This document shows, one piece after another, positions 1 to 40,708 of a DNA stretch of 40,708 bases (positions within the stretch are counted from its first letter, which is position 1; each line of letters opens with the position of its first letter). Below the pieces are notes generated by a model that saw nothing but the letters and a program-made list of their open reading frames with translations, ran no database searches and was not told the DNA's origin. This DNA comes from Przondovirus NAN33P2. The stretch lies in the sequence record OZ035820.1. One strand, written 5' to 3'. The translations under genes and the position numbers were made by a program.

Positions 1-26
1 ACTGGAAGAAAGCTAATAAGGAGTAA
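1..26 (+). CDS. gp17.5: 3' end of holin gene 17.5, continuing from 40531..40708 across the circular junction
   Basis: Reading frame from ATG 40531 continues through the window end into positions 1-23 (...DKII|DWKKANKE) with TAA at 24-26; C-terminus matches the recalled T7 gp17.5 ending DWKKANKE. Confidence 0.8.
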
Positions 27-29
27 CAT

Positions 30-287
30 ATGGACCTGATTAAGTTCCTCGAAATGTTAGACACTGAGATGGCTCAGCAGATGCTCATGGACCTGAAGAA
101 TCCAGAGAAGCGGACCCCTCAGCTGTACAACGCCATTGGTAAACTACTGGAGCGTCATAAGTTCCAAATCTCTAAGCTGACCCCTGACGTTAACATCTTG
201 GGCGGACTGGCTGAGGGTCTGGAGGCTTATAACTCCAAGGTGGGTGCTGATGGTCTGACAGATGACGATAAGTTCACCCTACAGTGA
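30..287 (+). CDS. gp18: Terminase small subunit (DNA maturation protein A)
   Basis: 85 aa; TAAGGAG RBS before ATG; motifs FLEMLDT, SPQLYNAI, LLERHKFQI and PDVNILGGLA match recalled T7 gp18. Confidence 0.85.
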   Translation: MDLIKFLEMLDTEMAQQMLMDLKNPEKRTPQLYNAIGKLLERHKFQISKLTPDVNILGGLAEGLEAYNSKVGADGLTDDDKFTLQ

Positions 288-290
288 TAT

Positions 291-325
291 ACTCAAGGTA
301 CTACTATATGTAGTGCCTTTATGGA
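291..325 (+). promoter_or_regulatory. RNase III-type processing hairpin (R18.5-like)
   Basis: ACTCAAGG...hairpin...CCTTTATGG element between gene 18 and 18.5; one of five copies of a conserved family; resembles recalled T7 R0.3 (ACTCAAGGG...CCCTTTATGA). Confidence 0.55.
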
Positions 326-383: not shown

Positions 384-830
384 ATGCTGGAGTTCACAAA
401 GAGAATCGTCCCGTATCTTGTGGCTATCATGGTGTTTGCCTTCGGGTGGCACTTGGGGACACAGTCTACGGACGCCAAATGGAAGGAGGAAGTACAGAAT
501 GAGTACGTTAAGAAGCAAACGGCTAGAGCTGAAACTCAGAAAGCGATTGACGCAGTATCGGCTAAGTACCAAGCAGACCTTGAGGGGCTGGAGGGCAGCA
601 CTGATAGGATTATTGCTGATTTGCGTAGCGACAATAAGCGGCTGCGCATCAAAGTCAAACCTACCAGTGTCGCCGCAGGACCAGACGGTCGATGCCTCAT
701 TGATGGTTCCGTCGAACTACACGAAGCAACTGCTCGAAGTCTTATCGCAATAACCCAGAAGGCTGACCTCAAAGAGAAGGCCCTACAGGACACAATTCGT
801 AAGCTGCAAGGGAAAGGAGGTGAACATTGA
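384..830 (+). CDS. gp18.5: i-spanin (Rz-like lysis protein)
   Basis: 148 aa; N-terminal TM helix ([15 protein letters not shown]) then coiled-coil; strong similarity to recalled T7 gp18.5 (MLEF...DAKWK...[10 protein letters not shown]). Confidence 0.85.
499..753 (+). CDS. gp18.7: o-spanin (Rz1-like outer-membrane lipoprotein), embedded in +1 frame within 18.5
   Basis: 84-aa ORF wholly inside gene 18.5 in another frame; GGAGGAAG RBS; signal-like hydrophobic stretch ending in lipobox-like ISGC; typical embedded Rz1 architecture. Exact start uncertain. Confidence 0.6.
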   Translation: MSTLRSKRLELKLRKRLTQYRLSTKQTLRGWRAALIGLLLICVATISGCASKSNLPVSPQDQTVDASLMVPSNYTKQLLEVLSQ

Positions 831-2584
831 GTAACTCTCAGCAAGCCAAGAACGCCTTAATCATTGCGCAACTGAAGGGTGACTTTGTCGCCTTTCTCTT
901 CGTGCTCTGGAAGGCCCTGAACCTGCCGGAACCAACCAAGTGTCAAATCGACATGGCCAAGTGTCTGGCAGACCCAAAGAACAAGAAGTTTATCCTTCAG
1001 GCTTTCCGTGGTATCGGGAAGTCGTTCATCACGTGTGCGTTCGTAGTGTGGACCCTATGGCGTGACCCTCAGTTAAAGATACTGATTGTCTCAGCCTCGA
1101 AGGAACGTGCGGACGCTAACTCCATCTTCATCAAGAACATCATCGACTTGTTGCCTTTCCTGAGTGAGCTTAAGCCTCGCCCCGGTCAGCGTGACTCCGT
1201 GATTAGCTTCGATGTAGGCCCTGCCAAGCCAGACCACAGCCCGTCAGTTAAGTCTGTGGGTATTACGGGTCAGCTTACTGGTAGCCGTGCCGATATCATC
1301 ATTGCGGATGACGTGGAGATTCCCGGTAACTCTGCAACACAAGGTGCCCGAGAGAAACTCTGGACGTTGGTTCAGGAGTTCGCAGCACTGTTGAAACCTC
1401 TGCCGACTAGCCGTGTTATCTATCTGGGTACCCCTCAGACCGAGATGACGCTCTACAAGGAACTTGAGGACAACCGTGGGTACTCGACGATTATCTGGCC
1501 TGCACAGTATCCTCGCTCCAAAGAGGAAGACCTGTACTATGGCGACCGTCTGGCCCCAATGCTTCGTAGTGAGTACGATGAGGACAAAGAGGGTCTCAGC
1601 AGTCAACCTACTGACCCGGTTCGATTTGACTCCATGGACCTTCAGGAACGTGAGGTGGAATACGGCAAGGCTGGCTATACTCTCCAGTTCATGCTCAACC
1701 CGAACCTCAGTGACGCCGAGAAGTACCCGCTACGCCTCCGTGACGCTATCGTGTGCGGTCTACAGGCGGACAAGGCCCCAATGCATTACCAGTGGTTGCC
1801 GAACCGTCAGAACCGCAATGAGGAGCTTCCTAACGTGGGCATGAAGGGTGACGAGATTTACTCCTTCCATACAGCCTCCAGTAACACTGGTGCGTATCAG
1901 GGTAAGATTCTGGTCATTGACCCAAGTGGTCGCGGTAAGGATGAAACTGGCTGGTGCGTGCTGTACACCCTCAACGGTTACATCTACTTGATGGACGCTG
2001 GCGGTACCCGTGGTTACGAAGAGAAGTCCCTTGAGTTCCTCGCTAAGAAAGCCAAACAGTGGCAGGTGCAGACTGTGGTCTTCGAGAGTAACTTCGGTGA
2101 CGGTATGTTCGGTAACGTGTTCCAGCCTGTGCTCCTGAAGCATCATCCGGCACAACTCGAGGAGATTCGTGCTCGTGGCATGAAAGAGGTACGTATCTGC
2201 GATACCCTTGAGCCTGTACTGGCAAGTCACCGCTTGGTCATCCGTGATGAGGTTATCCGTCAGGACTACCAGACTGCACGCGATGCGGACGGTAAGCACG
2301 CCCTTAAGTACAGCCTGTTCTACCAGATGACCCGTATGAGTCGTGAGAAGGGCGCTGTGGCACACGATGACCGACTTGATGCACTAGCATTGGGTGTCGA
2401 GTTCCTACGTGCTACGATGCAGCAGGACGCTGTGAAGATAGAGTCTGAGGTACTTCTGGAGTTCTTGGAGCACCACATGGAGAAGCCCCTTAGTAACGTC
2501 TCCCAGTTCAAGGCCACCAGCAGCAACGGTGTGGACATCCGCTGGGAAGACGACGGGGATGATTCTATGTTCATCGCATGGTGA
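827..2584 (+). CDS. gp19: Terminase large subunit (DNA maturation protein B)
   Basis: 585 aa; near-identical in long stretches to recalled T7 gp19 ([37 protein letters not shown]). Start appears to be TTG at 827, 5 nt after GGAGGT and overlapping the 18.5 stop. Confidence 0.9.
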
Positions 2585-2664: not shown

Positions 2665-2687
2665 AATTAGGTAGCACTATAGGGAGA
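2665..2687 (+). promoter_or_regulatory. Phage RNAP promoter (phiOR-like)
   Basis: AATTAGGTAGCACTATAGGGAGA, 23-mer collinear with the T7 promoter -17..+6; position after gene 19 matches T7 phiOR. Confidence 0.75.
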
Positions 2688-2828: not shown

Positions 2829-2978
2829 ATGCGCTTACTGTTAACCTTACTGCGCCATAGGACTACTTGGCGGTTTCTGCTGGTACTTGCTGGTGCCCTT
2901 GGGGCTTCACTGGTTACTCAGCAACAACTCGGTGGACTGGAGACTCTCGTGTGCTCTCTACTCGCTTGTAGCGATTAG
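2829..2978 (+). CDS. Small hypothetical protein at the gene 19.5 position
   Basis: 49-aa ORF (MRLLLTLLRH...LACSD) preceded by AAGGAGG; same size and position as T7 gene 19.5; sequence homology not verified. Confidence 0.35.
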   Translation: MRLLLTLLRHRTTWRFLLVLAGALGASLVTQQQLGGLETLVCSLLACSD

Positions 2979-3161: not shown

Positions 3162-3342
3162 TCTCACAGTTTAAACTTTTGGTTATCCCCCCGGTACCCT
3201 CTCAGTCCACCCAAAGTAACCATGGGGCCACCCTAAACCTTCGGTTTAACCTTAGGTCGGTACCTTGGGAATCCTGAGGTGATACTATATGTTGTGGTGA
3301 GGGTGACTCAATGACGCTATATGTTGATGCCTCTGTGTCCCT
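3162..3342 (+). repeat. Terminal repeat region of the linear virion DNA (one copy in this circular assembly); boundaries approximate
   Basis: Begins with TCTCACAGT, the recalled first bases of the T7 genome, and ends at CCTCTGTGTCCCT, resembling the recalled end of the T7 terminal repeat (CTCTGTGTCCCT); flanked on both sides by short-repeat arrays. Confidence 0.45.
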
Positions 3343-3576: not shown

Positions 3577-3599
3577 AATTAGGTATCACTATAAGGAGA
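3577..3599 (+). promoter_or_regulatory. Phage RNAP promoter variant (phiOL-like)
   Basis: AATTAGGTATCACTATAAGGAGA; carries the same TATAAGGAGA variant as recalled T7 phiOL and lies just upstream of the host-type early promoters. Confidence 0.55.
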
Positions 3600-3679: not shown

Positions 3680-3715
3680 TTGACATTCAGATTCCGTTAT
3701 GAGACATTAGCAACC
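3680..3715 (+). promoter_or_regulatory. Candidate host sigma70 early promoter (A1-like)
   Basis: Perfect -35 TTGACA at 3680-3685; -10 is poor (GACATT or ACATTA at 17-18 bp spacing); position about 86 bp after phiOL parallels T7 A1. Confidence 0.3.
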
Positions 3716-3812
3716 GTTGAGAGACACAACGTCACCAACGACCAGACAATACCACGAGTTATCTGGTTAGACTGAGGGTCTCAAGTAGCTATCAACCGGC
3801 ATACGAAAATGG

Positions 3813-3841
3813 TTGACTCAACGATGAACAAGTAGTAAGAT
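3813..3841 (+). promoter_or_regulatory. Host sigma70 early promoter (A2/A3-like)
   Basis: TTGACT (3813-3818), 17-bp spacer, TAAGAT (3836-3841); resembles recalled T7 A2 (-10 TAAGAT). Confidence 0.55.
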
Positions 3842-4009: not shown

Positions 4010-4477
4010 ATGATTTTCACGAAAGAACCAGCCAACAAAGTATTCGTATTCGTTACCGCATACCGTGGCCATGAGTCGCAGGAAGTAAACGAGAAGATGC
4101 TCAAGGGTCTCATTAAGACCATTCGCACCTATCCGGGTGCATACGGCAACATTCGTGACGAGAACGTGCAAGGCTGCTTTAAGGAAGATGGTATGCCTGC
4201 GGCAACACAAGAACGCACGCTCAAGGTCGAATGTACTGAGAAGCAAGCCGCAGAGTTGACATGGCTGGCCTGTAAGACCTACTCGCAGGATGCCGTGCTG
4301 GTGGTGAACTCACAGACCCATACAGCAGCTCTGTGGTCTATTGAGGATGTAGGCGAGTATCCACAGGTCTACCCACGCTTGAAAGAGGTGTCCTTAGGTG
4401 GCACGCTGCAACAAGTGGATGCACCAAAGGGAGAATGCTATTCAGTCATCAACGGGCAGTACTGGGAGGTGGTGTAA
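4010..4477 (+). CDS. gp0.3: S-adenosylmethionine lyase / SAMase (anti-restriction), T3 gene 0.3 type
   Basis: 155 aa; first early gene; N-terminus MIFTKEPAN and internal QTHTA match recalled T3 SAMase; RBS GAAGGA. Confidence 0.7.
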   Translation: MIFTKEPANKVFVFVTAYRGHESQEVNEKMLKGLIKTIRTYPGAYGNIRDENVQGCFKEDGMPAATQERTLKVECTEKQAAELTWLACKTYSQDAVLVVNSQTHTAALWSIEDVGEYPQVYPRLKEVSLGGTLQQVDAPKGECYSVINGQYWEVV

Positions 4478-5196: not shown

Positions 5197-6210
5197 ATGA
5201 ACTACACCGACATGCAAGAACGCTTAGACGTCATCCGCAACCTACCAATCTGTGAACTCGACAAGCGCCAGCCGCTGCTGGTAGCACTCATCGCTGACAT
5301 TGTGAACTATGAGACGTCCGACGGTGACGATACGGATAGCGATTGGGGTCTGGAACGTCAGGACTATTGGCAAACCCTGAAGATTAAGGCCAAAGACGCT
5401 GGGTTCAACCTACTAGGCAATGGTCACTTCAGCGCAGCGTTTAAGCACGAGCTGCTACCGGGTAGGGTCATTAAGGTTGGCTTTAAGAAAGAGGACTCAG
5501 GGGCCGCCTACGTGGCTTTCTGCCGGATGCACCAAGGTAGGGTAGGGATTCCTAACGTCTATCACGTAGCGCGTCACGCTGGCTGCTACACGGTGGTGCT
5601 AGACGAGCTTGAGCCTTGTCAACGCTTCGACAACGAGACGCACGAGCATTACGCAGACCTTGCTAACTACTTTGTGGAGAACTCTGGTGCAGAGCTGGGC
5701 GATGTTGACGGTGCAGAGAAGGAATTACACTTCGTCGAGACGTGCCAAATGATTAACAAGTTCTTCCACGGGATTGCATCCTTTGACATGCACAGCGGTA
5801 ACATTATGTTCACCAAAGACGGCAAGCCAGTAATAACCGACCCGGTGTCATTCTCGAAGGACCGCGAACGTGAGCCTTTCTCACTGGAACCTAATGTACT
5901 GATTGCAGAGATTGAGCAGATAGCGCACGACAAGATGATTGAACGCTGTAAGCGCAACAAGGCAAAGCGTGACCCGAACGGGGAGCTGCGCATCGCACGT
6001 CGTAAGGCAAATAAGGAGCGCAGAGCACGTCGTAAGGCACACGCTATGTGGCGTAAGGAGCGCGAACGGATTAACGCCGAGGCCCTAAAGGTTGACCTTG
6101 CGAAAGTCGAGGAGCGGGTACTGGCATGGCAGGTGGGACCCGGCCTAGCGATACAGCAGGGAAAGCCTTTACCTATCGATAACTATCTTCAGGGTAGACT
6201 CATGGGCTAA
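5197..6210 (+). CDS. gp0.7: Serine/threonine protein kinase (host shut-off), gene 0.7-like
   Basis: 337 aa; immediately upstream of gene 1; kinase-like N-terminal half and basic C-terminal tail (RRKANKERRARRKAH); assignment by position and size relative to T7/T3 gp0.7. Confidence 0.65.
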   Translation: MNYTDMQERLDVIRNLPICELDKRQPLLVALIADIVNYETSDGDDTDSDWGLERQDYWQTLKIKAKDAGFNLLGNGHFSAAFKHELLPGRVIKVGFKKEDSGAAYVAFCRMHQGRVGIPNVYHVARHAGCYTVVLDELEPCQRFDNETHEHYADLANYFVENSGAELGDVDGAEKELHFVETCQMINKFFHGIASFDMHSGNIMFTKDGKPVITDPVSFSKDREREPFSLEPNVLIAEIEQIAHDKMIERCKRNKAKRDPNGELRIARRKANKERRARRKAHAMWRKERERINAEALKVDLAKVEERVLAWQVGPGLAIQQGKPLPIDNYLQGRLMG

Positions 6211-6279: not shown

Positions 6280-9000
6280 ATGAACGCATTAAACATTGCA
6301 CGTAATGACTTCTCAGAGATTGAACTGGCCGCTATCCCGTATAATATCCTCAGCGAGCACTATGGGGACAAGCTGGCACGCGAGCAGCTGGCACTGGAGC
6401 ATGAAGCGTACGAGCTGGGCGAGCAGCGTTTCCTGAAGATGCTGGAACGTCAGGTGAAAGCTGGTGAGTTCGCTGACAACGTGGCTGCTAAGCCGCTGGT
6501 CCTAACGTTGCACCCGCAGCTGACCAAGCGTATTGACGACTGGAAGGAGGAGCAGGCAAACGCACGCGGTAAGAAACCTCGCGCATACTACCCGATTACG
6601 CACGGTGTGTCCTCAGAGTTGGCCCTCAGTATGGGCGCTGAGGTTCTCAAAGAGAAGCGTGGAGTGTCCAGTGAGGCAATCGCACTGCTCACCATTAAGG
6701 TGGTCTTAGGGACGCTCACAGACGCCGCAAAGGCCACAATCCAGCAGGTGTCCTCACAGTTAGGCAAGGCCCTTGAGGATGAGGCCCGCTTCGGTCGTAT
6801 CCGTGAGCAGGAAGCCGCATACTTCAAGAAGAACGTAGCGGACCAGCTGGACAAGCGCGTAGGCCACGTGTACAAGAAGGCTTTCATGCAGGTCGTCGAG
6901 GCCGATATGATATCCAAAGGGATGCTGGGCGGGGACAACTGGGCGAGCTGGAAAACTGACGAGCAGATGCACGTAGGGACCAAGCTGCTGGAGCTACTTA
7001 TCGAGGGAACTGGTCTGGTGGAAATGACCAAGAACAAGATGGCCGATGGCTCCGATGATGTGACCAGTATGCAGATGGTCCAGCTGGCTCCGGCCTTTGT
7101 GGAACTCCTGAGCAAGCGAGCGGGCGCACTCGCAGGTATCAGCCCGATGCACCAACCGTGCGTAGTCCCTCCGAAACCTTGGGTGGAGACCGTAGGCGGT
7201 GGCTACTGGTCAGTCGGTCGTCGCCCGCTGGCACTGGTTCGTACCCACTCCAAGAAGGCACTGCGCCGCTACGCAGACGTGCACATGCCAGAGGTATACA
7301 AAGCGGTAAACCTCGCGCAAAACACACCGTGGAAGGTGAACAAGAAGGTGTTGGCGGTAGTCAATGAGATTGTTAACTGGAAGCACTGCCCGGTGGCTGA
7401 CGTTCCAGCGATTGAACGTGAAGAGTTACCACCGCGCCCGGACGATATCGACACCAACGAGGTGGCACGTAAGGCATGGCGCAAGGAGGCCGCGGCGGTC
7501 TACCGTAAGGACAAGGCCCGCCAGTCTCGCCGTTTGTCGATGGAGTTCATGGTCGCACAGGCCAACAAGTTCGCTAACCACAAGGCCATCTGGTTCCCGT
7601 ATAACATGGACTGGCGCGGGCGTGTGTACGCTGTGAGCATGTTCAACCCGCAGGGTAACGACATGACCAAGGGTATGCTGACGCTGGCCAAGGGTAAGCC
7701 GATTGGTCTAGACGGGTTCTACTGGCTGAAGATTCATGGTGCAAACTGTGCAGGCGTCGACAAGGTTCCCTTCCCTGAGCGCATCAAGTTCATCGAAGAG
7801 AACGAGGGCAACATTCTGGCGAGTGCAGCTGACCCGCTGAATAACACTTGGTGGACACAGCAAGATTCACCGTTCTGCTTCTTAGCGTTCTGCTTCGAGT
7901 ACGCAGGCGTTAAACACCACGGCCTGAATTACAACTGCTCGCTGCCTCTGGCGTTCGATGGATCATGCTCTGGGATTCAGCACTTCAGCGCAATGCTCCG
8001 CGATTCCATCGGTGGCCGTGCGGTAAACCTGCTGCCATCTGATACCGTGCAGGATATCTACAAGATTGTGGCCGATAAGGTCAACGAGGTGCTCCAGCAG
8101 CACGCTGTCAACGGGTCTCAAACGGTGGTCGAGCAGATTGCCGACAAGGAGACTGGTGAGTTCCGCGAGAAGGTAACGCTGGGTGAGTCCGTACTTGCTG
8201 CGCAGTGGCTGCAATATGGTGTTACCCGCAAGGTGACTAAGCGTTCGGTAATGACGTTGGCGTATGGTTCCAAAGAGTTTGGCTTCCGCCAGCAAGTTCT
8301 TGAGGATACCATTCAGCCAGCTATTGACAACGGCGAGGGCTTGATGTTTACGCACCCTAACCAAGCGGCTGGCTATATGGCTAAGCTGATTTGGGACGCT
8401 GTGACCGTGACCGTAGTGGCCGCTGTCGAGGCAATGAATTGGCTGAAGTCTGCCGCTAAACTGCTGGCCGCTGAAGTCAAGGACAAGAAGACCAAAGAGG
8501 TGCTCCGTAAGCGCTGCGCAATCCACTGGGTAACACCAGACGGCTTCCCGGTGTGGCAGGAATACCACAAGCGAGATCAAGCGCGCCTGAAGCTGACGTT
8601 CTTGGGTCAGGCCAACGTGTTCATGACGTACAACAAAGGGGAAGCCAAAGAGATTGACGCACATAAGCAGGAGTCAGGAATCGCTCCTAACTTTGTGCAC
8701 TCACAGGATGGTAGTCACCTGCGCATGACCGTAGTGCACGCCAACGAGGTCTACGGGATTGACTCCTTCGCGCTCATTCATGACTCCTTCGGGACCATTC
8801 CAGCAGACGCTGGGAATCTCTTTAAGGCAGTCCGTGAGACGATGGTCAAGACCTACGAGGATAACGATGTAATCGCTGACTTTTATGACCAGTTCGCTGA
8901 CCAGCTGCACGAGTCTCAACTGGACAAAATGCCTGCTGTCCCGGCCAAAGGTGACCTGAATCTGCGCGATATCTTAGAGTCTGACTTCGCGTTCGCCTAA
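6280..9000 (+). CDS. gp1: Single-subunit DNA-dependent RNA polymerase
   Basis: 906 aa; collinear with recalled T7 RNAP (MN..NIA.NDFS.IELAAIP, RGKKP, PFCFLAFCFEYAG, HDSFGT, final FAFA); about 20 extra residues in the N-terminal domain; length equals my recollection for K11 RNAP. Confidence 0.95.
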   Translation: MNALNIARNDFSEIELAAIPYNILSEHYGDKLAREQLALEHEAYELGEQRFLKMLERQVKAGEFADNVAAKPLVLTLHPQLTKRIDDWKEEQANARGKKPRAYYPITHGVSSELALSMGAEVLKEKRGVSSEAIALLTIKVVLGTLTDAAKATIQQVSSQLGKALEDEARFGRIREQEAAYFKKNVADQLDKRVGHVYKKAFMQVVEADMISKGMLGGDNWASWKTDEQMHVGTKLLELLIEGTGLVEMTKNKMADGSDDVTSMQMVQLAPAFVELLSKRAGALAGISPMHQPCVVPPKPWVETVGGGYWSVGRRPLALVRTHSKKALRRYADVHMPEVYKAVNLAQNTPWKVNKKVLAVVNEIVNWKHCPVADVPAIEREELPPRPDDIDTNEVARKAWRKEAAAVYRKDKARQSRRLSMEFMVAQANKFANHKAIWFPYNMDWRGRVYAVSMFNPQGNDMTKGMLTLAKGKPIGLDGFYWLKIHGANCAGVDKVPFPERIKFIEENEGNILASAADPLNNTWWTQQDSPFCFLAFCFEYAGVKHHGLNYNCSLPLAFDGSCSGIQHFSAMLRDSIGGRAVNLLPSDTVQDIYKIVADKVNEVLQQHAVNGSQTVVEQIADKETGEFREKVTLGESVLAAQWLQYGVTRKVTKRSVMTLAYGSKEFGFRQQVLEDTIQPAIDNGEGLMFTHPNQAAGYMAKLIWDAVTVTVVAAVEAMNWLKSAAKLLAAEVKDKKTKEVLRKRCAIHWVTPDGFPVWQEYHKRDQARLKLTFLGQANVFMTYNKGEAKEIDAHKQESGIAPNFVHSQDGSHLRMTVVHANEVYGIDSFALIHDSFGTIPADAGNLFKAVRETMVKTYEDNDVIADFYDQFADQLHESQLDKMPAVPAKGDLNLRDILESDFAFA

Positions 9001-29013: not shown

Positions 29014-29039
29014 CCGAACGTCTCCCTGTGGTGTTGCTC

Positions 29040-29062
29040 AATTAGGTAGCACTATAGGGAGA
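29040..29062 (+). promoter_or_regulatory. Phage RNAP promoter (phi13-like)
   Basis: AATTAGGTAGCACTATAGGGAGA. Confidence 0.8.
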
Positions 29063-29086
29063 CCACACTAAGAGGGGACTTAAAGC

Positions 29087-29497: not shown

Positions 29498-29499
29498 CT

Positions 29500-30090: not shown

Positions 30091-32345
30091 TGGCCAGTAA
30101 ATTAGAACAAGCATTAAGCCAACTGCCGCAGGCCGGGTCTACCCGCATCCGTGGTGGCTCAGCGTCCATGCAGTATCGCCCAGTAACCATTCAGCAGGAG
30201 GGGTACAGACAGTCCAACCTAGTGCAGTCCTTGGCGAAGTTTGGTACTGCGGTGGGTGAGGCAGCGGATGCCTACGACAAGCGCCAACGGGACAAGGCCG
30301 ATGAGCGGTCCGATGAGATTATCCGTAAGTTGACCCCAGAGCAGCGCCGCGAGGCAATCAAGAATGGGACCCTACTGTATCAGGATGACCCGTACGCTAT
30401 GGAGGCCCTACGGTTCAAGACTGGACGTAACGCAGCGTTCCTCATTGACGACGAAGTGGCACAGCGTGTCCAGAACGGTGAGTTCCGTACTCGTGCTGAG
30501 ATGGAAGAGTATCGCCACAAACGGTTGACCGAAGGTGCCAATGAGTTCGCCGAACAGTTCATGATTAACCCTGAGGACTCTGAGTTCCAGAGAGGGTTCA
30601 ACGCGAACATCACTGAGCGCAACATCTCGCTGTACGGTAAGCACGATACGTTCCTTAGTGAGCAAGCCCAGAAGGGCGCCATACTGGCCTCGAAGGTTGA
30701 GCTGTCAGGCGTACTCAAAGACCCAGCCGTTCTGGCGCGTCCAGAGTCCGGTGAGTTCTTCCAGCGCTACATCGACAACGCGATTAAGACCGGGAGTATC
30801 CCTAGCGATGCCCAAGCGCAGCAGGTAATCATTGGGTCACTTAACGACGTCATTCAGCGTCCGGGTGCCACCAACTTCCTCCAGAGCCTTGCAGACCGTC
30901 CGGTGACCCTCAACGGGAAGACCTCGACCTATAAGGAGCTGATGGGAGAGGAGCAGTGGAACGCCCTGATGGTCAAGGCCCAGTCGACTCAGTTCGACAA
31001 TGACGCTAAGTTGTCTGAAGGTTTCCGCCTTGGGATTACCAGCGCGTTGAACCAAGACGACACCAGCAAGGGCTGGGAGATGCTTCAGGGTGCCAAAGCG
31101 GAACTTGACCGTCTACAACCCGGTGAGCAGATGACCCCAGAGCGTGAGCGTTTGATTCAGGCTGAGGAGCAGATGCAGGCACGTTTCCGTCAGGAGGCTC
31201 AAGCAGCAGCCAAGGAGATGGACAAGCGGCAGAAGACCATCAACAAGAATCAGGTCATCGACCAGCAGTTCACCAAGCGTATCAACGGTCAGTACGTGTC
31301 CACCAGCTACAAGGATATGCCGACCAACGAGAACACCGGAGAGTTCACTCACAGTGACATGGTGAATTACGCTAACGGTAAGCTGGCTGAGATTGACCAG
31401 ATGCAGCTCACGGAGCAACAGAAGGACCGCATGAAGCTGAGCTACCTACGGGCAGACTCAGAGGGTGGAGCCTTCCGTACCGTTGTGGGCCAGCTGGTAA
31501 CCGACGCTGGGTCTGAATGGTCTGCCGCTGTGATTAACGGTAAGTTACCAGAGGACACCACGGCGCTGAACAAGCTGCGCACCATGCGTAACACCGACCC
31601 GGACCTATTCGCCGCGCTGTACCCAGACAAGGCTGAGCTGTTCCTAACGCTTGACATGATGGATAAGCAGGGGATTGACCCCCAGATTCTCATCGACGCT
31701 GACCGTTCTCGTCGCAGCCTAACCAAAGAGATGCAGTACGAGGATGACAAAGCGTGGGCGGCACTGAAGAACAACTCCCAGTCCCCAGAACTGTCCCGCA
31801 TTCCAGCCAGCCTTGATGGTATGGCCAGAAAGATGTACGACAGTGTTAAGTACCGCACAGGCAACAGTGACATGGCCATGGAGCAGGTCGATAAGTTCCT
31901 CAAGGAATCCACTGTGACTTTCAAGGGTGACGACGTGGATGGTGATACCATTGGTATTATCCCGAAGAACATCCTACAGGTCAGCGATGACCCTAAGAGC
32001 TGGGAGCAGGGCCGAGACATCCTCGAAGAAGCCCGTAAGGGAATCATCGCGGCTAACCCTTGGGTGACCAACAAGCAGTTGACGATGTACCAGCAGGGTG
32101 ACTCTATCTACATGATGGACACCACTGGTACCGTACGCATCCGCTACGACAAGGAGCTACTGACTCAAACCTATCAGGAACAGCAGCAGCGACTGGCTAA
32201 GGAAGCCGAAGAGAAGGCACTGAAGGAAGCAACCAAGCGTGCACCTATATCCGCAGCCACTCAGGCTCGTAAGGCAGCAGGTGAGCGTGTCCGTGCGAAA
32301 CGTAAGGCCACTCCGAAGTTCATCTATGGAGGTGGCGATGAGTAA
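30090..32345 (+). CDS. gp15: Internal virion protein C
   Basis: 751 aa (T7 gp15 is 747 aa); position between 14 and 16. Confidence 0.85.
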   Translation: MASKLEQALSQLPQAGSTRIRGGSASMQYRPVTIQQEGYRQSNLVQSLAKFGTAVGEAADAYDKRQRDKADERSDEIIRKLTPEQRREAIKNGTLLYQDDPYAMEALRFKTGRNAAFLIDDEVAQRVQNGEFRTRAEMEEYRHKRLTEGANEFAEQFMINPEDSEFQRGFNANITERNISLYGKHDTFLSEQAQKGAILASKVELSGVLKDPAVLARPESGEFFQRYIDNAIKTGSIPSDAQAQQVIIGSLNDVIQRPGATNFLQSLADRPVTLNGKTSTYKELMGEEQWNALMVKAQSTQFDNDAKLSEGFRLGITSALNQDDTSKGWEMLQGAKAELDRLQPGEQMTPERERLIQAEEQMQARFRQEAQAAAKEMDKRQKTINKNQVIDQQFTKRINGQYVSTSYKDMPTNENTGEFTHSDMVNYANGKLAEIDQMQLTEQQKDRMKLSYLRADSEGGAFRTVVGQLVTDAGSEWSAAVINGKLPEDTTALNKLRTMRNTDPDLFAALYPDKAELFLTLDMMDKQGIDPQILIDADRSRRSLTKEMQYEDDKAWAALKNNSQSPELSRIPASLDGMARKMYDSVKYRTGNSDMAMEQVDKFLKESTVTFKGDDVDGDTIGIIPKNILQVSDDPKSWEQGRDILEEARKGIIAANPWVTNKQLTMYQQGDSIYMMDTTGTVRIRYDKELLTQTYQEQQQRLAKEAEEKALKEATKRAPISAATQARKAAGERVRAKRKATPKFIYGGGDE

Positions 32346-32361
32346 ACAATAAGGAGACAAC

Positions 32362-35300
32362 ATGAGCTACGACAAGTCCAGACCTAGTGACTACGACGGT
32401 ATCTTCCAGAAGGCAGCAGACTCTCACGGAGTTAGCTATGACCTGCTGCGTAAACTGTCCTTCAACGAATCATCCTTCAACCCTAAGGCCGTCTCTAAGA
32501 CTGGACCTAAGGGCATCATGCAGTTCACCCGCAACACGGCCCGAGCGATGGGACTTAACGTTACCGATGGTGACGACGATGGGCGCTACAACCCTGAGTT
32601 AGCCATTGACGCTGGCGCTAAGCTGCTTGCGAGCCTCGTTAAGAAGTACAATGGGGATGAGCTTAAAGCGGCCCTAGCGTACAACCAAGGGGAAGGCCCA
32701 GCGGGTGCTCCCCAGCTTCAAGCGTACGACAAGGGAGACTTCGGGTCTATCTCGGAGGAAGGTCGTAACTACATGCGCAAGCTGCTGGACGTGGCCAAGA
32801 GTCCGAACTCAGGAGCACTGGAGGCGTTCGGGGGCATAACCCCAAAGGGTAAAGGGATTCCCGCAGAGGATGCCTTCAAGGGCATCTCCAAGGCTGGCAA
32901 GGTAGGTACCGAACTGCCGGAGTCCCATGGGTTCGACGTTGAAGGTGTAGCGCAGGAAGCGCCCAACACACCATACGCTAAGGACTTCTGGGAGAAGACC
33001 GGGACGACTCTCGATGAGTATAACGCTCGGTCAACCTTCTTCGGTTTCGGTGATGCTGCTGAGGCTCAGATTCAGAACTCAACACTAGGTGTTGCCTTCC
33101 GTGCTGCGCGTGCTGACGATGGGTACGATGTGTTCAAGGACACAATGACCCCGACTCGCTGGAACTCTTACGTCCCCTCCAAGGAAGACTTACAGAAGCT
33201 GCGAGACTCCGGGTTGCCGCCAAGTTACTACGGTGTGGTGACTGGTGGTGACGGTGAGAACTGGGATGCGCTCATCAAGCTGGCCAAGGATAACTTCGAG
33301 GCTGACCAAAGGGCCGCTGAGGCTGGTACTGGGGCGAAACTAGCTGCTGGTATCGTTGGTGCTGGTGTAGACCCACTCAGCTATGTACCTCTGGTCGGTG
33401 TGACCGGGAAGGGACTCAAGGTGGTCAATAAGGCCTTGCGAGTAGGTGTGCAGGCTGGAGCACTCAGTGTTGCCTCTGAAGGTATCCGTACGTCAGTCGC
33501 TGGTGGTGAAGCTCACTACGCTGATGCGGCACTTGGTGGGTTACTGTTCGGTGCTGGTATGTCAGCCCTTAGTGACGCGGTGGCCGCTGGTATCCGCAAG
33601 GCTCGTGGAGTAGACTCCGTGAATGAGTTTGCTGGACCAGCACTCCGTATGGAAGCGCGAGAGACTGCCATCAACACTGGTGGTCACGACACCTCGACAC
33701 TACCTCCAGAGAACTTCTCGTTCGAGCAGGACCACAGAGGTGTTCCGTTTGCCGACCACCCGACCGAAGAGGGAGCAGTGGTTCTTGCCAATGGTTCCAT
33801 CCTGAGTGACACCAACCCGCTCAACCCAAGGACTCAACGTGACTTCGCAGAGATTGACCCAGAGCGTGCAGCTCCCGGTATCAAACTCGGTGGGTTCACT
33901 GAGATTGGTCTGAAGACCTTAGGGTCCAAGGATGCTGGCGTTCGTGCAATCGCTCAGGACCTCGTCCGTTCTCCTACAGGTATGCAATCAGGGTCTAGTG
34001 GTAAGTTCGGTGCGACCGCTTCGGACATCCATGAGCGTCTCCATTCGACTGACCAGAGGATGTATAACCAACTGTATGACGCTGTTGACCGCGCTATGAA
34101 GGACCCAGAGTTCTCCGTAGGCGAGCAGAAGATGTCACGCAGAGCCATCCGTCAGGAAGTCTACAAGCGTGCCGCCTTGGCGATTGAACGCCCAGAGTTA
34201 CAGGCTGATTTGACCAAAGGTGAACGTGAGGTGATGGACCTGCTGAAAGAGCACTTCGACACCAAGCGTGAACTGATGGAACAGCCGGGTATCTTCGGTA
34301 ACGCTAACGCCGTGAGCATCTTCCCCGGTAGTCGCCACAAAGGTACCTACGTGCCTAACGTGTACGACAGGGCTGCTAAGCAGTTAATGACGCAGAAGCT
34401 GGGCGGACCTGAAGGACTCCAACAGGCAATCGCTCAGAGCTGGCTCACCAGTTACCGAGTGCGGCCTGAGGTCAAGGCACGTGTCGACGAGTACCTGATG
34501 GAACTTAACGGCTACAAGTCGGTAGACCAAGTGACACCTGAGGTGGTCCAGAAGCACGCCATGGATAAGGCGTACGGTATCAGTCACACAGAGGACTTCA
34601 CAGCGTCCAGCATCATTGACGACAACATCACAGGTCTGGTCGGTATCGAGAACAACTCGTTCCTTGAAGCCCGTAACATGTTCGACAGTGACCTCCCGGT
34701 TACCTTACCTGACGGGTCAACCTTCAGCGTCAACGACCTGCGGGACTTTGACATGGCACGGATTATCCCAGCGTACGACCGTCGAGTTAACGGTGATATC
34801 TCCATCATGGGAGGTAGCGGTAAGACCACTAAGCAGCTCAAGGACGAAATCATGGCGTTAGACAAGCGGGCCGAACGCAAGGGACAACTGAAGGGCGAAG
34901 TGGAAGCACTGAAGGATACCGTTAAGATTCTCACTGGTCGTGCTCGCCGTAACAACGATACAGCCTTTGAGACTGCTATGCGCTCCCTGAATGACCTAGC
35001 GTTCTTCGCTAAGAACTTCTACATGGGTCCGCAGAACCTCACAGAAATCTCTGGGATGTTGGCTAAGGGTAACGTCAAGGCAATGCTTCATGGTATCCCA
35101 ACGTTGCGGGACCTAGCGACTAGAACCTCTCCGGTGTCCGGTAGTGAACTCCGTGAACTCCATGGGGCGCTGTTCGGTAAGGAACTCGACCAGTTAATCC
35201 GTCCGGGGCGTGAGGACATCGTACAGCGAATCCGCGAGGCGTCCGATACCAGTGGAGCCATGGCTTCTGTCATTGGTACCATTAAGTTCGGTACTCAGGA

Positions 35301-36327
35301 GCTGTCTGCTCGTTCTCCTTGGACAAAGATGCTGAATGGTACGGCTAACTACATTCTGGACACTGCCCGTCAGGGTGTGCTCGGTGATGTGGCTGGTGCG
35401 GCCCTAGGCGGCAAGGGTTCAAAGTTTGGCAAAGAGAACTTCCTCAAAGCTGCCTCTATCAGTCCTGAGCAGTGGAAGGGCATCAAGCAACTCTTTGTAG
35501 ACCACGCGACTCGTGACACTAACGGTCAGTTCACCATCAAGGACAAGAAGGCTTTCAGTCAGGACCCGAGAGCGATGGACCTGTGGCGTCTTGCCGATAA
35601 GGTTGCCGACGAGACCATGCTGCGACCCCACAAGGTATCTCTTCAGGATTCCAAGGCGTACGGTGCTGGTGTCAAGATGGCTATGCAGTTCAAGAACTTC
35701 ACCATCAAGTCGCTCAACGCTAAGTTCATTAGGTCCTTCTATGAGGGCTACAAGAACAACCGCGCTATCGACATGGCGTTGACCCACATCCTGTCACTTG
35801 GTATCGCCGGGACTTACTATGCGATGCAGGCCAACGTGAAGGCTTACGGTCTCCAAGAGTCTCAACGTAAGGACTACCTGAAGAAAGCCCTGAACCCGAC
35901 CATGCTGGCCTATGCAGCGTTGACTCGAAGTTCCCACACTGGTGCCCCGCTGTCCATCGTCTCGATGATTGCAGGTGCCGCTGGGTTCCAAGATGCAAAT
36001 ATGCTGCGCTCCACCATCTTACCTAAGGAGGAACAGTTCCAGAAGAAAGAAGGAGCATCCAAAGGTCGTGCCGAGTCGGGCAACCTTGTGGGTAACTTGG
36101 GGTCTCAGGTCCCGGCTCTTGGTTACGTAGGGAACGTCATTGCAACCGCTAAGAACGCCTACGGTGTTGTTACAGCACCCAATAAGCCGACTGAGCGCGA
36201 CTACATGACTGGCCTGATGAACTCCACTAAGGAGCTTGTGCCGAACGACCCGCTGACCCAACAGCTCATCATGAAAATCTATGAGGCTAACGGAGTAACC
36301 ATCAAACAGCAGCCTAAACCCAACTAA
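32362..36327 (+). CDS. gp16: Internal virion protein D with N-terminal lytic transglycosylase domain
   Basis: 1321 aa; N-terminal SLT-like domain (GVSYDLLRK, TGPKGIMQFT, ALAYNQGEG) and long collinear similarity to recalled T7 gp16. Confidence 0.95.
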   Translation: MSYDKSRPSDYDGIFQKAADSHGVSYDLLRKLSFNESSFNPKAVSKTGPKGIMQFTRNTARAMGLNVTDGDDDGRYNPELAIDAGAKLLASLVKKYNGDELKAALAYNQGEGPAGAPQLQAYDKGDFGSISEEGRNYMRKLLDVAKSPNSGALEAFGGITPKGKGIPAEDAFKGISKAGKVGTELPESHGFDVEGVAQEAPNTPYAKDFWEKTGTTLDEYNARSTFFGFGDAAEAQIQNSTLGVAFRAARADDGYDVFKDTMTPTRWNSYVPSKEDLQKLRDSGLPPSYYGVVTGGDGENWDALIKLAKDNFEADQRAAEAGTGAKLAAGIVGAGVDPLSYVPLVGVTGKGLKVVNKALRVGVQAGALSVASEGIRTSVAGGEAHYADAALGGLLFGAGMSALSDAVAAGIRKARGVDSVNEFAGPALRMEARETAINTGGHDTSTLPPENFSFEQDHRGVPFADHPTEEGAVVLANGSILSDTNPLNPRTQRDFAEIDPERAAPGIKLGGFTEIGLKTLGSKDAGVRAIAQDLVRSPTGMQSGSSGKFGATASDIHERLHSTDQRMYNQLYDAVDRAMKDPEFSVGEQKMSRRAIRQEVYKRAALAIERPELQADLTKGEREVMDLLKEHFDTKRELMEQPGIFGNANAVSIFPGSRHKGTYVPNVYDRAAKQLMTQKLGGPEGLQQAIAQSWLTSYRVRPEVKARVDEYLMELNGYKSVDQVTPEVVQKHAMDKAYGISHTEDFTASSIIDDNITGLVGIENNSFLEARNMFDSDLPVTLPDGSTFSVNDLRDFDMARIIPAYDRRVNGDISIMGGSGKTTKQLKDEIMALDKRAERKGQLKGEVEALKDTVKILTGRARRNNDTAFETAMRSLNDLAFFAKNFYMGPQNLTEISGMLAKGNVKAMLHGIPTLRDLATRTSPVSGSELRELHGALFGKELDQLIRPGREDIVQRIREASDTSGAMASVIGTIKFGTQELSARSPWTKMLNGTANYILDTARQGVLGDVAGAALGGKGSKFGKENFLKAASISPEQWKGIKQLFVDHATRDTNGQFTIKDKKAFSQDPRAMDLWRLADKVADETMLRPHKVSLQDSKAYGAGVKMAMQFKNFTIKSLNAKFIRSFYEGYKNNRAIDMALTHILSLGIAGTYYAMQANVKAYGLQESQRKDYLKKALNPTMLAYAALTRSSHTGAPLSIVSMIAGAAGFQDANMLRSTILPKEEQFQKKEGASKGRAESGNLVGNLGSQVPALGYVGNVIATAKNAYGVVTAPNKPTERDYMTGLMNSTKELVPNDPLTQQLIMKIYEANGVTIKQQPKPN

Positions 36328-36389: not shown

Positions 36390-38921
36390 ATGGACCAAGA
36401 AATTAAAACAGTCATCCAGTACCCCACAGGGTCCACTGAGTTCGACATCCCGTTCGACTACCTGTCCCGTCGCTTCGTCAGAGTGTCTCTGGTCTCTGAG
36501 GATTCCAGAAGACTGCTGAGTAACATCACGGAGTACCGCTACGTCTCCAAGACCAGAATCAAACTACTGGTTTCTACTGAAGGTTTCGACCGTGTTGAGA
36601 TTCGTCGGTTTACCTCAGCCTCTGAGCGAATTGTTGACTTCAATGATGGCTCTGTGCTGCGAGCAACAGACCTTAACGTATCACAGCTACAGTCGGCGCA
36701 TATTGCTGAAGAAGCCCGTGACGCAGCCCTGCTGGCCATGCCTCAGGACGACGCAGGTAACCTCGATGCACGCAGTCGCCGTATCGTTAACTTGGCTCCC
36801 GGTATTGACGGCACTGACGCTATCAATAAGGACCAGTTAGATTCAACGCTGGGTGAGGCTGGTGGTATCCTTTCTGATATGAAAGAAGTACAGAAGGAAA
36901 CCTATGACTACATCGAGAAGCTCGGTGACGACACTTCGATTGTCCGTGGGGTAACTTGGGTGTACAACCAAGGGTCTGCCGTTGGTGGAGAGACTACGGT
37001 CCTCGTCGATAAACCTACCCGCACACTTGCCGTTCCTTACATTGAGATTAACGGTAGTCGCCAAGAGGTTGGGTATCACTTCTCGTTTGACATTGCCACC
37101 CAGATGATTACCTTGACGGAACCACTGGTTGCCGGGGATTTCCTGATGGCAATGACCACAGAGTCCAGTGTACCTCTGGAAGACCTTCTGGCCAACCCTA
37201 CTGGTGCCTCGGCTATTGGTACCTCCGATGGTCGAAACGTTCAGGCAAACATCGACGAGCTTCGCTCCGAGTTAGACTTCCTGAAAGACACGACGGTACT
37301 TGACGTTAGACGCTTTGGTGCTGTTGGTGATGGTATTGCAGATGATTACCCAGCGTTTCAGAAAGCGTGCATAGCCGCTAGTCAACTTGGTGGGGCAATA
37401 GTCCACGTACCGACTCCAAAGGTAAAATGGAAGATTGGATTCCCGGTTTACTTGTTCGACCGCACTTGGGTCCGTGGGACAGGCATCAACTGTATTGTCG
37501 AGTTCACTGACCCGCTGTATGCTCGCAAGTCCCGCTCTGGGTTCGTCATTGGGTCTGGCTACGAGCAGAACCGCGACAAGGCTATTCAATGTCTTAACGA
37601 TGGCACTTGGGCCACTACTGGTTCGGTGGTAGATAGGAACTTCGTTGAGTTGGACCGAGGTCAGTACGTTCGCGACAATCCGAGCAAGGTACAGTCGAGA
37701 CTGTGCCGAGTGTCCGGGATGTACCTGAAGGCTTCATATCCGAATGGTGCTACCCTGAAGGGTGGTTACGCAGTGTCTGGTGCCAACGCAGTAGACTCAG
37801 AGGTATTTGATATCTGGGGCGAAGGTTGGACTGAGATTATCAACTTCGGGTCTGACGTACCACCAGCTACACCAAGCTGTCACAACCTCCATGCGTACGA
37901 CATCACGTGTGTTGCACCTAACGACTACGAGACGTACTACAGTGCAGGATTCATTGCGAACTCTACAAGTTGCTCTATTGGCCGCTTCAAGCAGCTCAGG
38001 GCAATAGCTGACGGTTCTCCTCATGGTTCCTGTGGTTCCACGAACTACACCGAGTTCTGTTCGTTCTATGACATTGATGTGCCCAATCTTGGTCGTACTG
38101 CATCTTCTGAGGGTATCCTCGTGAACAACTCTAAGGGCGCGGTGACTCGTAACATCCGTATCGGGAACGCTAAGACGTGCGTGGCTGAATACTACACCAC
38201 TGGTGCGGGTATCTTCTACGACCGTAACCATCCGAACGTGTTCGACGGTATTCACGCTAACAACTGTGACAACGCGGTAGCTCTCCGCTCCAAGTTCTCA
38301 GTTTGGAAGAACGTGACGCAGACCAACTGTACCTATCACGTCTACTTCGGGACGACCAACGCACAAGCCTGTGTGGTCAAGTTCGTACCGGACACAATCG
38401 GTGGTGGTAATAACGTAGACATTCTGGACAGGCTCCGCGATAACGTTGTGACTGGCTGGCGTGTGCGCTCGCTCCACATCCGCCCCATCGCCTACCTACT
38501 GAACGACAAGTCAGTGTTGCGTAGCTGGGATGCTGGTAAGAACATCAAGGCTGAGAACGGTGTGGGATTCCAGTGGTTATTCCCTGTACCATCTACCATG
38601 CGTGCAATCACTCAGGTCAGCCAATGGTTTACCTTCGAGGTGGGTGCAGCGTCGGCCGGGACAGAGGTCAAGGTTCAGGTTCGCCGTATGTCAGCGTACA
38701 ACGGAGACGCCAACGAGCAGCCTGTAATCCTCTTTGAGAACAGCCGCAAGGCCTCTCTGGATACCGTACAGGCTACTAACATTGTGGCCAACTCCCCGGG
38801 TCTGGTCCTGACGTCCCCTACGGATGGACTGGCTAACGCTGTGGATGTCCTCGTGAGTGTTACGGCACCGACCGTTAACTTCAACATGAAAGAAGCTCGC
38901 ATCACGTATCTGGGCGACTAA
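36390..38921 (+). CDS. gp17: Tail fiber / tailspike: T7-gp17-like N-terminal anchor fused to a right-handed beta-helix depolymerase-like domain
   Basis: 843 aa; first 150 aa resemble the recalled T7 gp17 anchor (IKTV..Y, F.IPF.YL.R.FV.V.L, RLVDF.DGS.LRA.DLNV); the C-terminal part has a pectate-lyase-type signature ([20 protein letters not shown]) and a Gly/Asn/Thr-rich repetitive composition. Confidence 0.85.
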
Positions 38922-38934
38922 CTAAGGAGACAGT

Positions 38935-40521
38935 ATGTTAAACAAATTGAATCAACCTAAAGGCTCTACAATCGGTGTGCTCAAGGATGGGCGCACCATC
39001 CAAGAGGCAATCGACGAGCTGGAGAAGATTAAGACCCGCAACGTTGACCCTGAGCGCTTCCGTGAGACGTTGACGTCAAGTGACGATGAGGTATTCGAGA
39101 AGCTGTTCGCGTGGTTGGCTACTCAGTCAGACGTTGTGGGAACCTCAAGTTCTTCCTATATCACAGCCTTACCTCGCATGATTGAGCTTAGCGGTCGTAC
39201 CTATACGTTGACTAAGCGTCACGTGCTGGACGGCAACTTCGGCATTCAGAACGGCACCATCCTGATGTCAGGTGAGGGTGAGATTATCATGGGGCTCGAC
39301 GCTGGCACTAAGACTCGGCGGCACTTCCTTAAGTATGCACACTTCGAGTACATCGGGGAAACAGACCGTAGCACCTCTCTGGTCACCATGGCGCGGTGCT
39401 TCAACTCTGTGGTTCTGTTCTGTAACTTCATAGCTGGTGGCGATGCCGCTCGCAACAGGGCTCCACGTACACGTTACGGCCTGTTCGCAGGGTCCACCAG
39501 ATGCTGGGGCTTCCAGTTAATCGGTGGTGAGTATTATGGTGGCGACTGTGCGTTGCGTGTTGGACGCGCTAACGACCACACTGGGTTGACCATTCGTCCC
39601 GGTACTGTTCACCATTCTCGCGTTATCAATATGCTATTATGTAACCCAGCGGGTGCTGAGGTGTCTGGTTGTAACATTGAACACGCAGACAATGGTGCCA
39701 TCGGCCTAGGGATTACCTCCGGTACCAATACCTCAGGTAACGCAGCCCATGGGGTTCGCATCAATGGTGTGTACTTATACAACAACGGTAACGGCTCCAG
39801 CGGCTCAAACGTAGCACCTGCGAATATTCTCATTGGTAAGGACATTCCGGGCACCGAAGGTTGGGACCGCCCGGGCGAGTTGATTACGTCAAGCCGAAAC
39901 ACCGCGCACAGTATTACTGTGTCAGAGTGCTACATTGTAAGCCCAAACACAGAGAATGCCTGGCAGGTGAACGCCCTGTACGGTGTGTCCTTCGTGGACA
40001 ACAAAGTAGGCCTCAAAGGTGACGCTACGATTCACGGTGTGTACGACGGTACGTGTGCTAACTGCTGGGCTGTTGGAAACCGAGATCAAGGCGGTAAGGT
40101 ATTCCAGTTCTCCTCTACAGCAACCAACGCGATTCTGACTACCCGCAAAGGTAAGTGGACTCCGAAGATTATCGGTGAGGGTATGGCAGGTAACACTACA
40201 CTGAGTGCTTCTGGCGGCGCATACTCTCTGGATAATGGAATGGTAACCGTATCGTGCTTCGCAGTGGTAGACACTAAGGATCCTAACATGGCTGGGAACC
40301 TGAACATCAAACTCCCGGTAGCCTGTGAGGACCAGCAGCGAGGTGGTAACGGAATTTCTCTGACTAACATCCCCGGCGTATCGAGTCCTAACGGGAGTGT
40401 TATAATCATTGGGGATACCGCTCGAATCATGCTAGGGTCTGCGAGATTGCAGCCCGAGAACATCACAACAGGCACTGCTATCCACTTCTCAGTGTCATAC
40501 CCAGCCGATGTTAAGGTATAA
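38935..40521 (+). CDS. Second tailspike / putative depolymerase lacking the T7-type anchor
   Basis: 528-aa ORF with TAAGGAG RBS between gene 17 and holin 17.5; repetitive beta-helix-like composition (GNFGIQNGTILMSGEGEI, NGAIGLGITSGTNTSGNAAHGVRINGVYLYNNGNG); no gp17-like N-terminus. Confidence 0.65.
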   Translation: MLNKLNQPKGSTIGVLKDGRTIQEAIDELEKIKTRNVDPERFRETLTSSDDEVFEKLFAWLATQSDVVGTSSSSYITALPRMIELSGRTYTLTKRHVLDGNFGIQNGTILMSGEGEIIMGLDAGTKTRRHFLKYAHFEYIGETDRSTSLVTMARCFNSVVLFCNFIAGGDAARNRAPRTRYGLFAGSTRCWGFQLIGGEYYGGDCALRVGRANDHTGLTIRPGTVHHSRVINMLLCNPAGAEVSGCNIEHADNGAIGLGITSGTNTSGNAAHGVRINGVYLYNNGNGSSGSNVAPANILIGKDIPGTEGWDRPGELITSSRNTAHSITVSECYIVSPNTENAWQVNALYGVSFVDNKVGLKGDATIHGVYDGTCANCWAVGNRDQGGKVFQFSSTATNAILTTRKGKWTPKIIGEGMAGNTTLSASGGAYSLDNGMVTVSCFAVVDTKDPNMAGNLNIKLPVACEDQQRGGNGISLTNIPGVSSPNGSVIIIGDTARIMLGSARLQPENITTGTAIHFSVSYPADVKV

Positions 40522-40530
40522 GGAGGTATC

Positions 40531-40708
40531 ATGTTGTCCCTAGACTTCAACAACGAAGTTATCAAGGCGGCTCCCATTGCGGGGGTCGCTGGGGCCGATG
40601 GCGTAGCGAGGCTCTTCTGGGGCCTCTCACTCAACGAGTGGTTCTACGTCGCGGCAATCGCCTACACAGTGGTTCAGATTGGTGCCAAGGTAGTCGATAA
40701 AATCATTG
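40531..40708 (+). CDS. gp17.5: Holin (class II), 5' portion; continues at 1..26
   Basis: MLSLDFNNE.IKAAPI...RLF.GLSLNEWFYVAAIAYTVVQIGAKVVDK matches recalled T7 gp17.5; TAAGGAGG RBS; joined product is 67 aa. Confidence 0.85.
   Translation, partial: MLSLDFNNEVIKAAPIAGVAGADGVARLFWGLSLNEWFYVAAIAYTVVQIGAKVVDKII

Follow-up and report, generated by a model that had tools for sequence, protein, structure and literature searches.

Przondovirus NAN33P2 is represented by a 40,708-nt sequence (record OZ035820.1), analysed here over its whole length and called the window throughout. Its holin gene, 17.5, begins near the last base and is completed after the first, which raises two questions: whether the window is a complete genome and, if its ends join, what form the DNA takes in the virion. 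We conclude with high confidence that the window spans one full genome unit of a lytic Klebsiella podophage belonging to Przondovirus (K11/KP32 group, Studiervirinae, Autographiviridae), whose virion DNA is predicted to be linear, with direct terminal repeats of ~180 bp that were collapsed at assembly. The "circularity" of the window is an assembly product of the collapsed repeat and not a biological novelty. The features that carry this argument are the following.

40531..40708, plus strand: holin gene 17.5, 5' part (codons 1-59 and the first base of codon 60)
1..26, plus strand: holin gene 17.5, 3' part (...DWKKANKE, TAA at 24-26)
3162..3341, plus strand: predicted terminal repeat, single collapsed copy (alignment to the K11 180-bp repeat; start TCTCACAG, end CTCTGTGTCCC(T))

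Closure across the split holin gene

The original prediction had read the holin through the junction, from an ATG at 40531 to the stop codon at 24-26, and this reading held. Joining the last 178 bases of the window to bases 1-26 yields an open reading frame (ORF) of exactly 204 nt, which encodes a class II holin of 67 aa (MLSLDFNNEVIKAAPIAGVAGADGVARLFWGLSLNEWFYVAAIAYTVVQIGAKVVDKIIDWKKANKE) reading MLSLDF...VVDKIIDWKKANKE up to the stop. The K11 and KP32 holins are identical to it at 67/67 positions, and T7 gp17.5 spans the junction as well, aligned over residues 1-67 at 85%. At the nucleotide level, a 375-nt probe joining the final 187 bases of the window to its initial 188 gave a single ungapped match at up to 99.2%, and in 403 phage records 80% or more of the probe is covered in one place, annotated there as holin followed by terminase small subunit. 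When K11 was compared with the rotated window, one high-scoring segment pair (HSP) of 3.35 kb and 95.9% identity ran through the junction.

The same join is present in assemblies of two sequencing runs, ERR12949719 and ERR12949718, whose Logan contigs were found by exact-protein look-up. Contig ERR12949719_2 (40,738 nt) passes from window 26390-40708 directly into 1-3197 with 0 mismatches and 0 gaps (100% identical), and ERR12949718_1 (12,293 nt) passes from 29279-40708 into 1-863, again with 0 mismatches and 0 gaps. A further contig, ERR12949718_0 (28,353 nt), shows, over the parts retrieved, full identity with window 1766-29247, including the region of the single-copy repeat. Because two independent run assemblies cross from 40708 to 1, the circle was closed independently of the producer of the window. 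The length of ERR12949719_2 equals 40,708 + 30, as would be expected if the assembly graph was built at k=31 and the contig is cyclic.

The point at which the circle was opened lies 29 nt upstream of the gene 18 ATG. Przondovirus records OZ035736, OZ035777 and OZ035748 in the European Nucleotide Archive begin at the equivalent base, and the OY97xxxx series begins exactly at the gene 18 ATG; the opening point therefore reflects the way such records are rotated, with the small terminase gene as reference, and marks no biological end. In Przondovirus NAN33P6 (OZ035736.1), bases 40490-40525 and 1-12 encode a different holin C-terminus (...DWKKANRGDS, then a stop), and ~36 extra bases separate the holin gene from gene 18 in a region that is otherwise conserved.

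Terminal repeat and form of the virion DNA

The two ends of the window do not overlap, and a search of the window for a long direct repeat or a second copy of the terminal repeat found none, so the window has a single copy of the terminal repeat and, strictly speaking, is short of the other. It lies within the window, as had been predicted. The left end of K11 and K30, TCTCACAGTTTACAC, aligns at window 3162, and the same start, of the form TCTCA(C/T)AG, is found in K11, K30 and T7 (TCTCACAG) and, with one change, in T3. Immediately left of 3162, 40 nt of the window match, base for base, the K11 sequence leading into the right repeat of that phage, and K11 base 180 corresponds to window 3341. 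The right end of the repeat, ...CTCTGTGTCCC(T), falls at 3341/3342 and its GTGTCCC(T) is common to K11, T7, T3 and PEA128. The window thus holds one copy of a direct terminal repeat homologous, together with its flanks, to that of K11, and it resembles T7 and T3 in having repeat ends of the form TCTCACAG...GTGTCCCT.

After rotation to start at 3162, window bases 1-40708 are colinear with K11 1-41000, a span of K11 that leaves out only its right terminal repeat; the window therefore amounts to a single, exact unit length. The virion DNA is predicted to be linear and ~40,888-40,889 bp long, with its left end at 3162 and the repeat at 3162-3341/3342, the exact physical ends and the linear topology being derived from homology and from the literature.

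Przondovirus virions contain linear DNA with direct terminal repeats, which primer walking placed at 180-183 bp in ten members of the genus, and short-read assemblers routinely delete one repeat copy and put the repeat in mid-contig (Elek et al., PMC10438801). The same course would explain the window. Both copies of the repeat would collapse into one during assembly, a single copy being also what the replicative concatemer has; the contig would then close on itself and be opened at its present start upstream of gene 18, a cut that would divide the holin gene between the end and the beginning of the window.

Some points weigh against this reading. The ends at 3162 and 3341 were placed by homology and not from read depth or read-start pile-ups. 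Annotated repeat lengths vary in the genus, from 180 in K11 to 282 in PEA128 and 393 in K30, so both the left and the right limits are homology-based estimates. The 30-nt self-overlap of ERR12949719_2, finally, was deduced from the length of that contig alone. The same contig ends at window 3197 and, by its length, would start at 3168, 6 nt inside the predicted left physical end; an end so near 3162 may reflect reads ending at the terminus, or it may be a coincidence.

The alternative that survives best keeps the linear molecule with terminal repeats and makes the repeat longer than 180 bp, either ~282 bp from ~3062, as in PEA128, or extended rightwards, as in K30. PEA128 annotates 282-bp long terminal repeats whose first base falls at window 3062, ~100 nt further left, and K30 annotates 393 bp. 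However, K11, K30, T7 and T3 all begin at the sequence found at window 3162, the right limit is the one that PEA128 itself shares with K11, T7 and T3, and the primer-walked repeats measure 180-183 bp (PMC10438801). The 282-bp model of PEA128 is thus a less likely description of the termini than the K11/K30/T7 start, and we regard a longer repeat of either kind as improbable.

A virion molecule that is circular or circularly permuted, as from headful packaging or a plasmid-like replicon, would also be consistent with an assembly that closes into a circle and holds one repeat copy only. It is very unlikely all the same. Both the repeat and the sequence around it are conserved with K11, a phage with annotated ends, the terminase subunits match those of K11 at 98-99% identity, and the window contains no plasmid or integration genes. 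The ten przondoviruses examined by primer walking have fixed repeats, and circle-like short-read assemblies are explained in that study (PMC10438801).

Least credible of all is an assembly or circularisation artefact at the holin junction, with sequence missing, duplicated or chimeric and the genome incomplete: the lack of overlap between the window ends hides the closure from anyone with the window alone, and the closest relative, NAN33P6, diverges at the holin 3' end, where it has 36 extra bases, but the joined ORF has the exact length and protein sequence of the K11 and KP32 holins, the junction probe aligns ungapped, K11 crosses in one HSP, and 403 records and two run assemblies are contiguous through it. 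Of the proposal that the window is a complete, circularly closed genome, the unit length and the seamless closure stand, and the circle describes the assembly and not the virion.

Relatives and gene inventory

A megablast search placed the window in Przondovirus, the group of K11/KP32-like Klebsiella podophages; it matched 427 Klebsiella records, with OZ035736.1 (NAN33P6) at the top. For whole-genome figures, which include the alignments to K11, KP32, T3 and T7 that the original prediction had called for, the window was rotated to start at 3162; the naming of a nearest genome covers the INPHARED collection of August 2025.

NAN33P6: aligned fraction 0.971, identity 0.957, product 0.930
K11: aligned fraction 0.883, identity 0.908, product 0.802
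KP32: aligned fraction 0.867, identity 0.913, product 0.791
T3: aligned fraction 0.664, identity 0.712, product 0.473
T7: aligned fraction 0.654, identity 0.708, product 0.463

All large HSPs lie on the same strand, with 0 inversions of order against K11, T3 or T7, and each of the K11 core proteins was recovered at full length as a single HSP. By the conventions of the ICTV, members of a genus share at least 70% nucleotide similarity over the genome, and members of a species at least 95% with a described member. With identity x coverage of 0.80 to K11, 0.79 to KP32 and 0.93 to NAN33P6, the window falls within Przondovirus, and its best value, 0.93, lies below the level of an existing species. 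The genome adds a new member, at roughly species level, to a known genus that is already very well sampled. Its T7-like character is seen in the single-subunit RNA polymerase (RNAP) encoded in the early region (906 aa; 73% identical to T7 gp1 and 98% to K11 gp1), and the genus trait in a gp17 with the T7-type N-terminal anchor (PF03906) and a second tailspike gene before the holin, whose N-terminus matches K11/KP32 tailspikes. Scans of the window for tRNAs and for Rfam families at gathering thresholds returned none.

NAN33P6 shares with the window its TAG-type promoters, a near-identical RNAP loop (2 residues apart), a record opened at the equivalent base, and both receptor-binding proteins (99.4% identical). 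It differs in lacking the endonuclease VII gene (window 16900-17341) and in early-region segments 3395-3526, 4481-4769, 4995-5182 and 11186-11282. K11 (NC_011043), the type przondovirus, with annotated ends, has a homologous 180-bp terminal repeat, the same 13 promoter positions and end-to-end colinearity, but differs in its promoter -10/-9/-8 triplet and RNAP specificity loop; it also has gp4.7, an extra ORF between 5.7 and 6, another 5.5 allele and other receptor-binding domains. KP32 (NC_013647) has the genus architecture, two receptor-binding proteins, a 100% identical holin and most core proteins at 93-99%, whereas its HNH endonuclease after the ligase (gp09), gp20 and gp22 have no counterparts in the window and its promoters are of K11 type. 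T7 (NC_001604) and T3 (NC_003298) share gene order, the RNAP-driven class I/II/III layout, the Tphi terminator and the G GTT TTC capsid frameshift site, yet only ~65% of the window can be aligned to them, at ~71% identity. Compared with T7, the window has an S-adenosylmethionine (SAM) lyase, as in T3, gene 1.05, a second tailspike gene and an endonuclease VII gene. A literature search on the record names NAN33P6, NAN33P1 and KP32i192 found nothing.

The T7-type gene content and order that had been proposed were borne out: 41 of the 56 T7 proteins tested matched by tblastn (E<=0.007), all on the plus strand, and the core genes follow the T7 order. T7 accessory genes 3.8, 5.3, 5.9, 7 and 7.7 had been said to lack counterparts, and with these tblastn gave chance-level matches only in the window (E 1.1, 0.086, 1.8, 0.12 and 0.40, respectively). 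There is no coding room for them at their syntenic positions, as measured from gene calls on the identical Logan contigs, with the 4A start taken from K11 gp4A.

3.5 to 4A (position of 3.8): 262 nt, with a promoter and two ORFs of ~31 aa
5 to 5.5 (position of 5.3): 18 nt
5.7 to 6 (position of 5.9): overlap
6.7 to 7.3 (position of 7): 1 nt
7.3 to 8 (position of 7.7): 23 nt

The possibility of a hidden homologue of 5.9, 7 or 7.7 among the small ORFs was rejected, PHROG scans of all small ORFs having returned K11-type families only. K11 likewise lacks these five genes; their absence is therefore shared with K11 and not special to this genome. The list of absent genes was incomplete, however, and tblastn with the T7 proteins also left 0.3 ocr, 0.4, 0.5, 0.6A, 1.4, 1.5, 2.8 and 4.7 without a counterpart in the window, the place of 0.3 ocr being taken by the SAM lyase (PF23780). 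Other przondoviruses, such as SH-Kp 152410, carry T7 3.8-like and 2.8-like nucleases, and homing-nuclease content varies within the genus. The remaining features of the window are listed below.

30..287, plus strand: gene 18, terminase small subunit (K11 gp18 98.8%; PF11123 on ERR12949719_2)
384..830, plus strand: gene 18.5, Rz-like spanin (K11 18.5 93.9%)
499-753, plus strand: gene 18.7, embedded in 18.5 (K11 18.7 97.6%)
827..2584, plus strand: gene 19, terminase large subunit (K11 gp19 98.6% over 585 aa)
2665..2687, plus strand: phage promoter phiOR (AATTAGGTAGCACTATAGGGAGA), position as K11 phiOR
2829..2978, plus strand: gene 19.5 (K11 gp19.5 92%; phrog_2193)
3577..3599, plus strand: phage promoter phiOL (AATTAGGTATCACTATAAGGAGA)
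3680..3841, plus strand: predicted early host-RNAP promoter region (TTGACA ~3682; TTGACT-17-TAAGAT 3813-3841)
4010..4477, plus strand: gene 0.3, SAM lyase of T3/K11 type, not T7 ocr (PF23780 3.5e-37; K11 0.3 89%)
5197..6210, plus strand: gene 0.7, protein kinase (K11 88%, T7 50%)
6280..9000, plus strand: gene 1, single-subunit RNA polymerase, 906 aa (K11 98%; variant specificity loop aa 763-790)
10287..11393, plus strand: gene 1.3, DNA ligase (T7/K11/KP32 comparison)
12629..14231, plus strand: genes 2.5 (single-stranded DNA-binding protein), 3 (endonuclease I) and 3.5 (amidase/lysozyme) (K11/KP32 88-99.6%)
14494..16224, plus strand: gene 4A/4B, primase-helicase (K11 4A 99.1%)
16908..17360, plus strand: endonuclease VII-family gene in the gene 4.7 slot (PF02945 2.9e-22; phrog_2633 3.8e-44)
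17341..19455, plus strand: gene 5, DNA polymerase, GTG start after GGAGG (KP32 96.6%, T7 84.9%)
19474..19761, plus strand: gp5.5-like H-NS inhibitor, divergent allele (phrog_1452 6.5e-21)
19758..20869, plus strand: genes 5.7 and 6 (exonuclease), no room for 5.9
21048..21779, plus strand: genes 6.5, 6.7 and 7.3, contiguous, no room for 7 or 7.7
21803..25691, plus strand: genes 8 (portal), 9 (scaffold, 23525-24484) and 10A (capsid, 24660-25691) (K11 94.7-99%)
25979..26016, plus strand: Tphi-like terminator, stem-loop then T run, position as K11 terminator
26037..36327, plus strand: genes 11, 12 (tail tube), 13, 14, 15, 16 (internal virion proteins)
36390..38921, plus strand: gene 17, first receptor-binding protein, 843 aa (PF03906 1.1e-36; KpV767 tail fibre 97.4%)
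38935..40521, plus strand: second receptor-binding protein or tailspike, 528 aa (N-terminal ~40 aa match tailspike PHROGs)

K11 annotates two host RNAP promoters between phiOL and gene 0.3, the same interval as the predicted region at 3680-3841, a likeness by position.

Promoters, accessory genes and receptor-binding proteins

Thirteen phage promoters with the 23-nt consensus AATTAGGTAGCACTATAGGGAGA were found, at 2665, 3577, 9011, 9658, 10185, 11392, 12565, 14233, 20978, 23409, 24483, 29040 and 36326, all of them at K11 promoter positions. Their -10/-9/-8 bases are T-A-G in 12 of the 13 and T-A-T in phiOL, a pattern also seen in NAN33P6 and SH-Kp 152410, whereas K11, KP32 and K30 have (G/A/T)-C-(A/C). 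In the RNAP, 9 of the ~25 differences from K11 fall within aa 763-790, equivalent to the T7 specificity loop at 740-767, and among them is K781F, at the position of T7 Q758, the residue that contacts promoter base -8. The loop type is matched at 99% identity or more in 101 records and at 95-99% in another 126 (at least 227 database records), and the promoter triplet and the loop residues co-vary in 6 genomes. Relative to K11/KP32, the RNAP loop and all 13 promoters have switched together. The phage of the window and the at least 227 records sharing the loop may use promoters of a class not recognised by the K11/KP32 polymerase, a suggestion that we make tentatively and rate slightly short of an even chance. 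If true, it would amount to a natural orthogonal polymerase/promoter pair inside one genus. A search for open-access papers containing the promoter string found none. On the minus strand, just upstream of phiOL, 3566-3537 holds a near-consensus leftward sigma-70-like promoter (TTGACA-18-TATAGT, 11/12), reminiscent of A0, which points leftward in T7 and T3.

The protein encoded at 16908-17360 scored 78.8 bits against PF02945, for which the Pfam cut-off is 23.6, and its gene overlaps the GTG-initiated start of gene 5 by 20 nt. The gene is not found in NAN33P6, K11 or KP32, and a minority of przondoviruses carry one; the protein has a 100% identical counterpart in phage RAD13 and ~80% identical ones in T7-like phages of other genera, from E. 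coli, Aeromonas, Yersinia and Salmonella. Given this sporadic distribution among relatives, it looks like a mobile, free-standing homing-type nuclease. The gp5.5 allele, identified only through a profile (phrog_1452), has no BLAST similarity to gp5.5 of K11 or KP32 and a weak match to that of T7.

At the end of gene 10A, the T7 frameshift heptamer G GTT TTC lies at 25673-25679, and the -1 frame is open to 25969. A -1 frameshift there would lengthen the capsid protein by ~95 aa into a minor form, 10B; in the gene calls this extension appears as a separate 73-aa ORF at 25748-25969 (phrog_7473). Short conserved repeats (TACTATATGTAGTG... and AAGC..AGTGATAAACTCA.GG) occur at 302-320, 16854-16872, 16828-16855 and 20951-20978. 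T3 annotates RNase III sites R18.5, R4.7 and R6.5 where the window has them, and by this comparison they are probably processing sites.

The first receptor-binding protein combines a T7-tail-fibre N-terminal domain with a variable depolymerase-like body and is 97.4% identical over 843 aa to that of KpV767 (NC_047772). KpV767 is a K57-capsule phage whose tail fibre is a K57-capsule depolymerase, so that a K57 specificity, and a K57 host, is plausible by analogy for the window protein. Beyond an N-terminal anchor of ~40 aa, scans of the second receptor-binding protein gave no Pfam or PHROG family. Full-length relatives were found only in NAN33P6, NAN33P1, PMBT12 (K. oxytoca), KA1-1 (K. aerogenes) and Serratia phage IME250 (38%). 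In KpV767 this protein is reduced to its first 67 aa, and many przondoviruses retain ~150-aa remnants made of its N- and C-terminal pieces.

For the genome as a whole, the consequences are mainly a matter of bookkeeping. The record is best treated as a linear genome of ~40.89 kb that starts at 3162, with the 180/181-bp repeat added at the right end, and the holin should be annotated as one gene. Nothing known about T7-like phages is challenged by it. Its pairing of a KpV767-like first depolymerase with a rarer second tailspike is useful for predicting hosts by capsule type in phage therapy collections.

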